Positions 8,981-59,997 of a stretch of 64,000 nt of DNA are shown one piece after another. The first letter of the stretch is position 1. Every line of letters starts with the position of its first letter. The notes beneath the pieces were generated by a model. It was not told the DNA's origin. It saw only the letters and a list, made by a program, of their open reading frames with translations, and made no database searches. Location of the stretch: NCBI GenBank assembly GCA_964016885.1, contig OZ024743.1, positions 53,692,001 to 53,756,000 of the forward strand, written 5' to 3'. The position numbers were made by a program, and so were the translations under genes. The stretch is from Eledone cirrhosa (Eukaryota).

Positions 8981-9172
8981 AGGAACGAGTAGGACCCCGA
9001 CGGCTGAGTTCAAGCCGTTTCGACGGCTAATTCTGGACTAAATTAGCCGTCGAAACGGCTTGAGCTCAGCCGTCGGGGTCCTACTCGTTCCTATTACCCA
9101 CTCTACTACCCTAAGTATTGAGTACTTTGGTGCGTTATGGTCCATCTGGTTCCTTACCACATTTGCTTCGTT
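8981..9172. mobile_element. (TA)n-embedded fold-back element (GCCGTCGAAACGGC family)
   Basis: Inverted arms 8981-9032 and 9041-9092 plus tail. Other copies at 31377-31438, 42669-43009, 44780-44863, 57059-57257 and 58885-58948. Confidence 0.75.
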
Positions 9173-9660
9173 ATATATATATATATATATATATATATAT
9201 ATATATATATATATATATATATATATATATATATATATATATATATATATATATATGTATATATTTATGTCTGTATGTATGTATGCATGCATATATGTAT
9301 GTATGTATGCATATATGTATGTATGTATCCATATAAGTATGTATATATGTATGTAAGTATGCATATATGTATATATATATATATATATATAATATATATA
9401 TATATATATATATATATATACATATATGCATATTTACATACATATATATAGTTATATGGATACATACATACATATATGCATACATACATACATATATGCA
9501 TGCATACATACATACAGACATAAATATATACATACTTACATATATGGATACATACATATATATATATATATATATATATGTCTGTCTGTATGTATGTATG
9601 TATGTATGTATGTATGTATGTATGTATGTATGTATGTATGTATGTATGTATGTATGTATG

Positions 9661-10679
9661 CATGGGAGAGATGACCCCTTAGCCTTTGTCAAGGCAGAAT
9701 TCTAGGAGAAGGAAAACTCTGATATAACACCTCTGATATAACACCTCTGATATAACACCTGCAACTCTGATGGTATCCAATGATGTTGACGTGTTCTTCT
9801 TTTTGGTAAATATCATCTTGGTTAAGAGAGTGGGACTGGCTTTGTGCAGTGCCTTTGCTCACTATAAAAGCTTCACGGCACAGGCATTGCTTTATATCTG
9901 GAGATCTCCCTGCATTTGTCGTCACATGATACCATGGGCCCAGCACTAAGTGTCAATAATTGTCACAAGTGTAGTGTTTGTACCAGAGTTTTCAAGTCGC
10001 TGGCTGGACTAAAAAGTCACACTCTTTCAGCGCATCGGTAGGGGTTCTCCTACATGGATATAAAGTAGTGGCCATACTCGAAAACGAGTTGGCAGCCACC
10101 ATGTATGTATGTATGGTCAGGTCATCGGCTACTAAACCGGCAACCCCACCAAGTTTACTTGGTGAGGAGGGTGATTTTGGACACCCTGCAGGACAAAAAA
10201 CAAAACCTGACAAAAGGCGGAAGAATTTATAAAGGTCAACGGCCATCCAAAAGTGTGTAAATATGTATATACACATGTACATGTGTGTGTATATGTGTAT
10301 ATGCATGGGTGCATGTGTATGTATATGCGCGGGGACATAGAAATAGTCGGGCTGGACACCCGATCACGCGGTTAAACCACGGGGAGTGAAGGACCCCTAG
10401 CCTTTGTCAGGGCATTATTCTAGGAGAAGGCAACTCAGGAAACTGGGAAAACTCCAATATAAAACCTGCGGCTCAGTAGTTACCGATGATGTTGATATTT
10501 TCTTCTTTTCGGGTTATTGCTACTGTCGCCCAGAGAGTGGGATTGGCTCAGTGCACAGTCTTTCCTCACTTTAAAAAATATCTTCACACACAGGCATTGC
10601 ACGATAGCATTAATTAATAATTATTAATAATGGTATATCGTGCAATGGCCATACTCGATAACGAGGGGGCAGCCATCAT
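9661..10679 (+). mobile_element. Two adjacent RTE-related SINE-like copies (subfamily A 9661-10103; subfamily B about 10116-10679)
   Basis: Direct similarity to 7756-8363 and 28488-28857. The subfamily B 3' end matches the LINE terminus at 11621-11657. Confidence 0.7.
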
Positions 10680-10917
10680 GTATGTAAGTATGTATGTAAG
10701 TATGTATGTATGTATGTTATCTCTTTCTCTTAATTTCGAGTATATTTTTTTGACCGGCCACCTTCCTGGTGGCAAGGTTGTAAAAGAAAAGAAATTGTCA
10801 TCCCTTGAATCGCAAGTATGTATGTAAGTATGTATGTATGTATGTATTATATGTATGTATGTATGTATGTATGTATGTATGTATGTATGTATGTATGTAT
10901 GTATGTATGTATGTATG

Positions 10918-56150: not shown

Positions 56151-56358
56151 ATAGATGAGATTCTACAGGACTAGAACTGTTTCATTCATTAGAAATCATC
56201 AGGAATTCCTGATGATTTCTAATGAATGAATGATGATTTCTAATGAATGAAACAGTTCTAGTCCTGTAGAATCTCATCTATATTAAAACTTTTATACTCT
56301 GCTATGTATTGAGTACCTTACTTACTGTGGTTACCTCCGATTCAACCCGGAATAACGT
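56151..56358. mobile_element. Palindromic hammerhead-core element; family copies at 19400-19680, 53860-54050 and 59560-59735
   Basis: Axis GAATTC at 56203-56208. Arms read CTGATGA-T-TTC(TAAT)GAA-T-GAAAC-AGTTCTA-GTC, with a short internal duplication in the right arm. Embedded in (TA)n. Confidence 0.7.
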
Positions 56359-57058
56359 ATATATATATATATATATATAATATATTATTTATATATATAT
56401 ATATATATAATATATTATATATATAATATATTATTTATATATATATATATATATAATATATTATATATATAATATATTATATATATATATATAATATATT
56501 ATTTATATATATATATATATATAATATATTATTTATATATATATATATATAATATATATATATATATATATATATATATATATATATATATATATATATA
56601 TATATATATATATATATATATATATATATATATAATATATAATATATATATATATATATATATATATATATATATATATATATATATATAAGGAATTTAT
56701 TGAAAAAGACAAATAAATAACAAGAAGGTTACTACTGTAATTTGTTAAAACTATTAATATTATTACTATTATTAGTTACGGTCTGAGTTCAAATCTCGCC
56801 GTGGTTAACTTTGCGTGTCATCCATTTGGGGGGTCGATAAAATAAAGTACCAGTAATGCACTGGGATAATTGCAGGCCTTGTGCCAATAGTAGAAACAAT
56901 TATTATTATTATTATTGGTTGGATTATTAGTAAATATTTTGAAACTTTCATCTATTTACTTATATGCTTGTATATGAGTATATATATATATATATATATA
57001 TATATATATATATATATATATATATATATATATATATATATATATATATATATATATA

Positions 57059-57257
57059 GGAACCAGTAAGACCCCGACAGCTGAGCTCAAGCCGTTTCGA
57101 CGGCTAATTCTGGACTGAGTCCAGAATTAGCCGTCGAAACGGCTTGAGCTCAGCTGTCGGGGTCTTACTGGTTCCTATTACCCACTCTACTACCTCAAAT
57201 ATTGAGTACTTTGGTGCGTTATGGTCCACATGGTTCCTTACCACATTTCCTTCGTTA
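57059..57257. mobile_element. Fold-back copy of the GCCGTCGAAACGGC family
   Basis: Palindrome centred near 57117 (GGACTGAGTCC) followed by the same tail as 9093-9172. Confidence 0.75.
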
Positions 57258-59997
57258 TATATATATATATATATATTTGTCTCTTTCTTCCTCACTTTCT
57301 GTTGCTTCACCATTTTGTTTGTTTACCCTCACGTCCCCTTTATTTACGTGTCCCAACGTCTTTTTTAGCCGTTGCTCGCACCAACCGGAGGTATATGGTC
57401 TTTAAAGCGATGAAATGCCTATGATGGTTGGAAGATCACTGATGAAGGACAAACTTTTTTCATATATATATATATATATATATATATATATATATATATA
57501 TATATATATATATATATATATATATATATATATATATATACATATATATATATATATACAAGTTAATATAAATTAATATATGATAAACACTAATACAATC
57601 ATATAAGTGTTTGTATTGTAAATGACCAAGTTAGCTAGATTGAAAAATACTAATTAGATTAATACAGTTTGCCTGTCTCGATTTAAAATAATAAATCAAT
57701 AAAAACAAACCCATATTGGCAATAGCCGTGATACCTGGACAAATTTAAATTTCAAAACCCAAATAAGTTTCGCAACGATAATTTAAAAAAGTGAAAAATT
57801 CCATTTTCTGTGGTCATCGGCAGGTATCCAGAACATTGGATGTTTCACCTCGAAATACTTAGGAGGACTGGTAGTCAAGTGGTAACGCACATGGTTTTCC
57901 AGTGTGTGTATTAAACGTATATATATATATATTATATATATATATATATATATATATATATATATATATATTATATGTGCATGTATATATATATATATAT
58001 ATATATATATATATATATATATATATATATATATATATATACATGCACATATAATTTATATATATATATATATATATATATACGTTTAATACACACACAC
58101 ACATATGCATGTGTGTGTGTGTGCGCACTAGTGTTCATGTTAGTGTGTTTGAATAGTAGCAGTAGTAGTTGTAGTAATACTATTAACAGTGGTGGTAGTA
58201 GTAGTAGTAGTAGTAGTAGTAGTAGTAGTAGTAGTAGTAGTAGTAGTAGTAGTAGTAGTAGTAGTAGTAGTAGTGGCGGTGGTAGTGGTAGTAGTAACTG
58301 GTGGTAGATATTGTTATTGTGTTCACCTATTTCTGACTTGTGTGATGGCTGTAAAATAAATATACACACAGACAGACATAAAGACACACAAATACACACA
58401 CACACACACATACACACACACATATATATATATGTATATATATATTTATACACTCACAAACATTTGTAGAAATATATACCCAAACACCATATACACATGG
58501 CTGAAACATACGTGCAAGTAGCCTAGGGGCTTGTGAATGAATTGGGGTTGATTATATATCAGCGTGATATCGAATTTATCTCATGGGATAAACATGTTAC
58601 TACGTCCACAAAATACACTTACTCGTGTATGTATCGATATAGCTAGGCAGTTATTAGTTGCCTTCACTTATTCATTAGTTTGTTTTTGATTTTACCATTG
58701 AGCTCGTAATCAAATCAACGCCGTCGTTTAGACTGCTGTAAACTTAACCATGGGCGCGCGCACACAGGTGTATGTATAAGGTGTATTGTTTATACATGCA
58801 TATATATATATATATATATATACATATATATATATATTTATATATATACACACACACACACACACATATTTATTTATTTATAGGATAGGAAAAAAGTCAG
58901 GACCCCGACGGCTGAGGTCCGACCATTTCGACAGCTTGTTCGGAACTATATATATAAAATGATCGATCGACTTTCGTCAAATCGGACCGAGAAAACAATG
59001 TTTCCGTTGGTCTTTCCAGTTGGTAATACTATTTATCGGTCGCAACTCCAGGTAGAAGGAGCGACGTGAAATAAAGTGTCTTGCTCAAGGACATAACGCA
59101 TCGCCTGGTCCGGGAATCGAACTGACAACCTCAAGATTGTGAATCCAATTCTCTAACCACTCAGCCACACGTCTTCAGAAGATCCCGTTAAGAGTGAAAG
59201 CAGCGATTCTTTGCTTAAACTTTAATCTGATTATTTTTTGACTAAAGAAATTTTAGCCTGATAATGGCGTTTAGAACCCTCAGATAAATGGAAAAAAATG
59301 GAAAAATAAATGGAAAAAAATGAGTATTGACGTACGTCAATCTTTCAAAAAACAAAATATATATATGGATATGTGAAGACTATATATATACCTACAGTAA
59401 CTTCACGTTACACTCCCTGGGTATATATATATATATATATATATATATATATATATATATATATACGCACACGCACACGCACACACACGCACACAATTTA
59501 CGTAAGTCACCGAAATTACTTCAGTGACCTCCGGCCATGATAAAACTCACTCAATGTAGATTCCTAGTTAAAACGGGGGTAACAGCAGTTAAAAATATAC
59601 CCAATACATTAGTAGAGTGTAAAGTCATATTTGATATAGAAATGGCTTGTACAGGACTAAAAAAATCATCAGAAGTTGCCCAGATGATTTTATACGAATG
59701 AAACATTTCTAGTCCTATAGAAACCATTTCTATAAAAAAAAAAATGGTATTTATATAAATTTGAGTATGTGTTGGCTGGTCACCGACACTTCGATATATA
59801 TATATATATATATATATATATTTAAAGGTTAAACAAGGTTCGATGAATAAATCAAAGAATGAGTTTTACAATAGATAGGAAGCACTCAACAGAATGGTTT
59901 TCCGGAGTTATTAATATTAATTCAAAATATTAACAGCATAGTCATGGTAGTGACTGAATCTTAACCATATACTATGTCAGGGTGTCATGCATCATCT

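Follow-up and report, generated by a model that had tools for sequence, protein, structure and literature searches.

The window analysed here is a stretch of 64,000 nucleotides from Eledone cirrhosa (assembly GCA_964016885.1, contig OZ024743.1, positions 53,692,001 to 53,756,000, forward strand). Short insertions between (TA)n runs recur in it and share an RNA motif, a hairpin with an outer stem of the type ACUC/GAGU and a 2-nt bulge on its 3' side. The motif belongs to Penelope-like elements (PLEs) of the Hydra clade. A site consists of an inverted arm, a direct arm, the motif and a further 40-70 nt. Type I hammerheads, identified by descriptor, lie upstream of the motif or in the inverted arm. 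The intact leader of one family, H1, is ordered as follows: hammerhead, P (the end of inverted copies), motif copy 1, a second hairpin, D (the end of direct copies), motif copy 2 and the ATG. Intact elements carry the motif twice between hammerhead and ATG, and insertion ends cluster at two sites, 0-9 nt 5' of a motif copy. Copy 1 is located in the known PLE tail, copy 2 just beyond the tail end. With families denoted by letters, the window contains:

8979..9177 (+): insertion of family A flanked by (TA)n; an inverted arm (P end at 8979) meets, head-to-head, a direct copy plus tail (D end at about 9174-9177)
9100..9126 (+): motif copy 1, family A
19396..19578 (-): insertion of family B with one end of each type, D and P
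19440..19461 (-): motif copy 1, family B
19632..19653 (-): motif copy 1, family B, tail-only copy
31396..31422 (+): motif copy 1, family A, fragment
34867..35201 (+): insertion of family C between a P end at 34867 and a D end at 35201; its inverted arm contains a type I hammerhead at 34974-34920 (-)
35118..35145 (+): motif copy 1, family C
36303..36339 (+): motif copy 1, family D, elsewhere in the genome a 1,322-bp unit without an open reading frame (ORF)
38563..38969 (-): insertion of family E, whose inverted arm contains a hammerhead at 38867-38911 (+)
38610..38652 (-): motif copy 1 of family E, with a long loop and a single mismatch in the inner stem
39667..39689 (-): motif copy 1, family F (a relative of family H1), within an insertion at 39600-39930
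42840..42870 (-): motif copy 1 of a family A copy whose sequence continues across the entire leader
42764..42788 (-): motif copy 2 (GCUC/GAGC), directly after the end of the tail and followed by the ATG at 42731-42729
44616..44664 (-): motif copy 1 of family I, of the GCUC/GAGC form with a long loop; copy 2 and the ORF start are in the leader at locus L040
44791..44817 (+): motif copy 1, family A
53862..54051 (-): family B insertion, decayed motif
56149..56360 (+): family B insertion, hammerhead core at 56209, motif copy 1 at 56296-56317
57056..57261 (+): family A insertion, motif copy 1 at 57184-57210
59560..59738 (-): family B-like insertion, decayed motif
59821..60111 (-): insertion of family G with motif copy 1 at 59908-59881 and, within its inverted arm, a type I hammerhead at 60006-60056 (+)
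61015..61292 (-): insertion of family H, with its hammerhead core at 61175 and a GCUC/GAGC-type motif copy 1 at 61087-61064

The motif in the window and in the genome

The original prediction described the motif at 13 sites of the window. It is real: all 13 are present. Three minus-strand sites, cited by their 3' ends, truly start at 42870, 19461 and 19653, and the site placed at 31397 begins at 31396. The inner stem was said to pair mostly, which holds for the 10 of 13 sites that pass when three inner pairs are demanded; 57184, 38652 and 39689 contain an inner mismatch. Against these 10 strict matches stand a mean of 0.41 and a maximum of 3 in 200 dinucleotide shuffles of 200-nt blocks. Three more copies in the window had been overlooked, at 61087, 44664 and 42788 (all minus strand), the last of them a second-position copy. 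A model built from metagenomic seeds alone recovers 12 of the 13 cited sites (36303 is missed) and finds three more in the window.

In the host genome (3.0 Gb, G000) one sub-pattern of the motif has 40,040 matches compared with 180 for the reversed control, and the GCUC/GAGC form has 24,314 compared with 671. The outer four base pairs are not invariant as originally claimed: GCUC/GAGC is the commoner form and UCUC/GAGA is present too. The corrected consensus is RCUC-stem-loop-UN-GAGY-RCY, i.e., conservation extends past the stem into RCY. A sequence set not chosen by motif was assembled from the window and 39 stretches, 454 kb in total. It holds 39 motif copies, the reversed control none. A TA run follows 30-80 nt beyond the motif in 31 of these 39 copies. 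The predicted position of a hammerhead upstream on the same strand applies to 13 of the 39 (core within 130 nt) and not to the remainder, because most copies are 5'-truncated or hold the hammerhead solely in the inverted arm.

Extrapolated from 24 in 390 kb, the motif tags about 1.8 x 10^5 insertions in the genome, which are overlooked by Pfam and Rfam. At the gathering score Rfam has no match in the window, not even for the hammerheads; the matches displayed by E-value are microsatellites against microRNA models, and the output of the repeat finder is likewise dominated by microsatellites. Chance, the termini of Helentrons or miniature inverted-repeat transposable elements (MITEs), and simple palindromes were rejected as the source of the motif because it is tied to the hammerhead, the Hydra ORF and fixed insertion ends.

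Hydra-clade elements as carriers

The families that share the motif had been considered unrelated. This is not supported: the ORFs that were reached encode homologous Hydra-clade proteins. Identity among the N-terminal parts is 33-50% for families A, C, E, H1 and I (one frameshifted copy is lower). Long copies led to intact ORFs, which measure 740 aa in family H1 and 716 aa in family A. They represent a single ORF with a reverse transcriptase (RT) followed by a C-terminal GIY-YIG domain, and YRDD and YVG/YIG were found in both. The RWK motif is present in family E and reads RWR in H1, A and I; DKT replaces DKG in all. The CxCX5C linker is CNCRDRSKC or CNCPDRSIC, CxxC is CDLC or CNLC, CxH is CRH or CKH, and CCHH is absent. 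According to the accessible part of Craig et al. (2021, PMC8557442), RWK, DKT, the CxCX5C linker, CxxC/CxH and a GIY-YIG domain lacking CCHH are features of the Hydra clade. Pfam misses the Hydra ORFs of this genome, and a Hydra profile has no sequence match in the PDB. An AlphaFold model of the Hydra protein (predicted local distance difference test score, pLDDT, of 88) has as its best fold match TERT 3du5 (E 9e-9), and other RTs were matched as well. The family A hammerhead is a U3-A8 core variant, a form described in PMC4209133.

With unit sizes of 3.54 kb (family A) and about 3.7 kb (H1) the elements are above the published Hydra tendency of <3 kb because their 3' untranslated regions are long. 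Family A forms 3.54-kb tandem arrays of near-identical units, some with intact ORFs (L180, L182, L183), which suggests recent activity. Of the window families B, F, G and H, F resembles H1 in the leader and Hydra endonuclease (EN) fragments lie near H-type loci; no ORF link was obtained for B and G. A programmed RT/EN frameshift, considered for five copies (L103, L104, L105, L109), was rejected; the same poly-C tract is affected each time, and homopolymer length variation is the explanation instead.

Is the motif restricted to this clade? Thirty other GIY-YIG loci, representing other PLE types, yielded five model matches, three from nested Hydra insertions and two weak ones. An affiliation with Neptune/Nematis- or Poseidon-like elements was rejected, the apparent link at L115 being a nested insertion. 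Six motif 9-mers gave seven matches in the available supplement of Craig et al., four in Hydra leaders or tails and three in coding sequence of other clades, with the reservation that line breaks can hide matches. The motif recurs in published coral and sea-cucumber Hydra consensi. As judged by eye on the printed sequences, three of six novel Hydra consensi have perfect copies (Hydra-2_Amil, Hydra-2_Ajap and Hydra-1_Ajap, with two in the leader) and two have imperfect ones; in the printed consensus ends of Hydra-1_Obim no motif was seen. Neptune/Nematis-like families (with a zinc-finger linker) and Poseidon-like PLE families are abundant in this genome; they end in (TA)n too and are motif-free (L011-L039, L110, L119).

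Apart from the PLEs, a 312-codon open frame at window positions 4440-5378 (+) contains a RLYLRRSEDGRGL stretch, a motif that makes the frame resemble a non-LTR (long terminal repeat) retrotransposon remnant.

Second copies, insertion ends and covariation

After copy 2 had been seen in H1, other families were predicted to have it immediately past their tail, and it was then found in A, C, D, E and I. The search covered A, B, C, D, E, H1 and I. Pattern matches numbered 341 in family A, 88 in D and 55 in E, with 0 in each control; C and I have copy 2 as well, and the window holds one at 42788. Two copies are thus present in each of the five families for which a pattern or a locus gave access to the leader (A, C, D, E, H1), and also in I. 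Family D is an ORF-less 1,322-bp head-to-tail tandem unit with hammerhead and both copies (L341-L346; G000:C1:130883312-130887359 and others), by its sequence a non-autonomous, retrozyme-like Hydra derivative.

Several further observations concern leaders and tails. An abundant family with GCUC motif, tail and (TA)n has no canonical hammerhead in the 200-300 nt upstream (L208, L209, L212), and is possibly a second non-autonomous unit; pairs of GCUC-form matches are spaced about 580 bp apart in the genome. In several families the tail contains another hairpin, variable in sequence, between copy 1 and end D (L156:1450-1470; window 9146-9160). At L152 near 4880 (-) the 5' flank of an intact ORF starts at D, immediately behind (TA)n; it contains copy 2 and lacks hammerhead and copy 1.

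Families A, H1 and C have their ends concentrated at two places in the unselected sequence, and 84 of 89 ends there from seven families fall in the P or the D window. All 26 head-to-head pairs of this set combine P with D, where 13 are expected if ends were independent; in motif- or gene-selected loci 64 of 66 do so. The raw DNA reads of three samples from one study give the same picture. They pass from H1 into (TA)n at the initial base of copy 1 (5,079, 5,691 and 7,638 reads; D is under-sampled for H1), and from family A 5 nt before copy 1 (3,181, 2,772 and 2,772) and 3 nt before copy 2 (8,198, 8,915 and 11,517). The palindrome centre at window 9026-9047 is exactly shared by many short family A insertions (105 exact copies, 104 of them in other places) and may be a junction hot spot or a small self-propagating unit.

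A metagenome scan returned 77 Hydra loci among the best 80 of 442, at 32-38% protein identity. The motif is positioned about 93-137 and 34-69 nt upstream of the ATG. Of 21 loci with hammerhead and ATG, 13 have two copies by the strict pattern, four have one and four none; several of the misses are, by eye, short-loop or variant copies. Twenty loci have both ends. Four stop at the contig end and one reads through, and 11 of the 15 informative 3' ends sit 2-11 nt ahead of a copy. TAT or ATA is found at -10 to -3 in 48 of 64 instances with a peak at -8 to -6, compared with 18 and 12 farther upstream and at most 45 in shuffles. Read from the sequence, this conserved UAU/AUA can pair with the (TA)n target.

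When 67 distinct metagenomic instances are anchored on CTC/GAG only, a set which retains a few mis-anchored ones, 60 pair at P1, 62 at I1, 46 at I2 and 48 at I3, and each value exceeds all of 20,000 shuffles. Pairing holds with a 2-nt bulge only, 108 of 134 versus 31-36 for other bulge lengths. Covariation amounts to 0.310 in an alignment of 59 sequences, the seeds of which had to pair at P1; it is 0.098 when shuffled and at most 0.115 when slid. Mapped on the protein tree, I1 of copy 1 changes six times and P1 twice, on both sides every time (32 of 32 paired), and one clade has switched both copies to UCUC/GAGA together. Both copies fold as drawn in two full leaders.

Probable positioning of the reverse transcriptase

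We consider it likely that each copy of the bulged hairpin acts on RNA as a docking site which places the element's RT a few bases upstream. The second copy, overlooked in the original prediction, is the key to this proposed mechanism. The GIY-YIG domain would nick the (TA)n DNA, and the freed 3' end would pair with UAU/AUA just upstream of a copy. Protein at copy 2 would prime one target strand from D and protein at copy 1 the other from P. The two cDNAs would join at their far ends, leaving an inverted repeat with the tail, i.e., the P-D interval including copy 1, on one side only. That ORF-less family D retains both copies counts for docking, and so do the excess of G-U over A-C on the sense strand in this genome and the internal RT starts of the Poseidon element (PMC11167929), both detailed below. 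The idea of a conserved cis signal for RT priming was part of the original prediction. Covariation, fixed position and the coincidence of ends with copies support it, with binding itself a prediction; the notion that it unites unrelated families had to be given up. More tentatively, we propose that a dimer of the Hydra RT-endonuclease occupies the two tandem hairpins of a single RNA and primes both target strands simultaneously from two telomerase-like UAU alignment sites.

Several points weigh against docking. The P and D windows are about 22 nt wide, D is simply the tail end for B and H, TA microhomology blurs each junction by 2-5 nt, and four of the 15 informative metagenomic ends misfit. 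Three of the outer pairs never vary in the 59-sequence alignment, and because they are invariant covariation is uninformative on them. The minimum-energy fold is the exact bulged form in only three of nine window copies, RNAalifold recovers only the outer four pairs, and copy 2 is often U-U at I2 (17 of 30 paired). Five matches in family B included no second copy. Finally, G-U exceeds A-C by only 7 to 3 in the metagenomic set, which is not significant, and the genome copies used for the same count are not independent.

The same two ends would arise if the hairpin acted on DNA, the GIY-YIG EN recognising it in single-stranded cDNA or in a read-through intermediate and cutting upstream. P and D would then be resolution cuts and not priming sites. 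In the accessible texts Craig et al. (2021) attribute the PLE tail to EN-mediated resolution, and Frangieh et al. (2024, PMC11167929) cite the Drosophila virilis Penelope tail as required for EN recognition; moreover, the intact copy at L152 starts at D directly after (TA)n. We nevertheless regard DNA cutting as unlikely. In the E. cirrhosa genome G-U outnumbers A-C on the sense strand by 31 to 11, a bias that fits action on this strand, the Poseidon tail ends are RT starts mapped in vitro on an RNA template (PMC11167929), and the conserved UAU/AUA suits primer annealing.

Two fixed genomic ends would also result if the hairpin caused the RNA to be cleaved, or its 3' end to be formed, a few bases upstream, with RT starting at free 3' ends in the manner of long interspersed nuclear elements (LINEs). 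RNA-seq read ends do coincide with the Poseidon start sites, but the Poseidon RT starts internally on longer RNAs in vitro (both PMC11167929). A cut at P would sever the RNA needed for D, a poor fit to strict P+D pairing unless two RNAs were sorted, and the motif matches no known ribozyme of Rfam in the window. All this renders RNA cleavage rather improbable. That the copies are leader elements for translation control, ribonucleoprotein assembly or hammerhead folding, adjoined by ends through local UA microhomology only, is very unlikely: copy 2 sits 19-62 nt upstream of the ATG and Poseidon hammerhead cleavage requires protein (PMC11167929), but the copies persist without an ORF, and the leaders are UA-rich throughout, yet only two sites are used by ends.

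How does docking of the RT at two hairpins compare with known systems? The 3' recognition stem-loops of LINE/R2 elements and epsilon of hepatitis B virus are cis RNA structures which are bound by their own RT and set the cDNA start. They occur once per priming event, near the RNA end or with priming within the bulge. The Hydra hairpin differs in that it is doubled, internal and has its proposed copying start outside the hairpin. The RNA alignment segment and boundary element of telomerase and SL5 of the DRT10 non-coding RNA (bioRxiv 10.1101/2025.10.16.682844, as far as available) resemble the present proposal because a stem-loop beside a short segment pairing with the repeat primer positions a TERT-like RT. 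Those stem-loops, placed 5' of the template, halt copying, whereas the Hydra hairpin is 3' of the start, would be uncopied in that round and would operate without repeat addition.

For the Poseidon element PAc, the accessible part of Frangieh et al. (2024, PMC11167929) describes two internal RT start sites that flank the tail, a requirement for RNA 3' of the start, extension of both target strands and a predicted dimeric RT. Shared with the Hydra case are the two tail-bounding sites, and an 'AC-rich stem-loop' is a feature there. PAc differs in that it belongs to another clade and starts inside the ORF, and a conserved motif is undefined in this account. Its printed template shows, by eye, a hairpin whose 3' bulge measures 3 nt; it spans roughly +121 to +147, directly 3' of the start at +111-118, and is not the Hydra consensus. 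With the Hydra-clade PLEs of Craig et al. (2021, PMC8557442, as accessible) the elements have in common the single ORF with RT and C-terminal GIY-YIG, the hammerhead, the (TA)n target, the inverted 5'-truncated partner and the optional tail; published tails measure 30-40 nt compared with 60-100 nt here, and the elements here span 3.5-3.7 kb. The available Hydra account in that paper makes no mention of a hairpin downstream of the hammerhead.

Hydra clade, hammerhead, tail and two start sites are already known. Apparently new are a covarying hairpin present in duplicate, the distance that separates it from either end, the UAU segment and the strict P+D pairing. In the accessible parts of the literature searched, including PMC8557442, PMC11167929, PMC4209133 and PMC3846280, no description of doubled hairpin, its spacing from the ends, UAU segment or P+D pairing was found; subscription papers, Repbase and Dfam were outside this search.

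How PLEs choose their RNA, why the tail is one-sided and why the partner is inverted are open questions for which the motif offers a direct handle, and the origin of PLE tail and inverted ends becomes directly testable. The motif predicts start sites in any Hydra family, it can be mutated or moved in vitro, and it would explain the mobilisation of ORF-less units. PLE RTs are the nearest retroelement relatives of telomerase; therefore, the pairing of a stem-loop with an adjacent short alignment segment is relevant to the evolution of RT-RNA positioning. If the proposal of a dimer on two tandem hairpins is true, each insertion would consist of two convergent cDNAs, the two-seat design would be a general cause of PLE tails and inverted ends, and the hairpin would be a portable tag of about 25 nt for internal, programmable target-primed reverse transcription.

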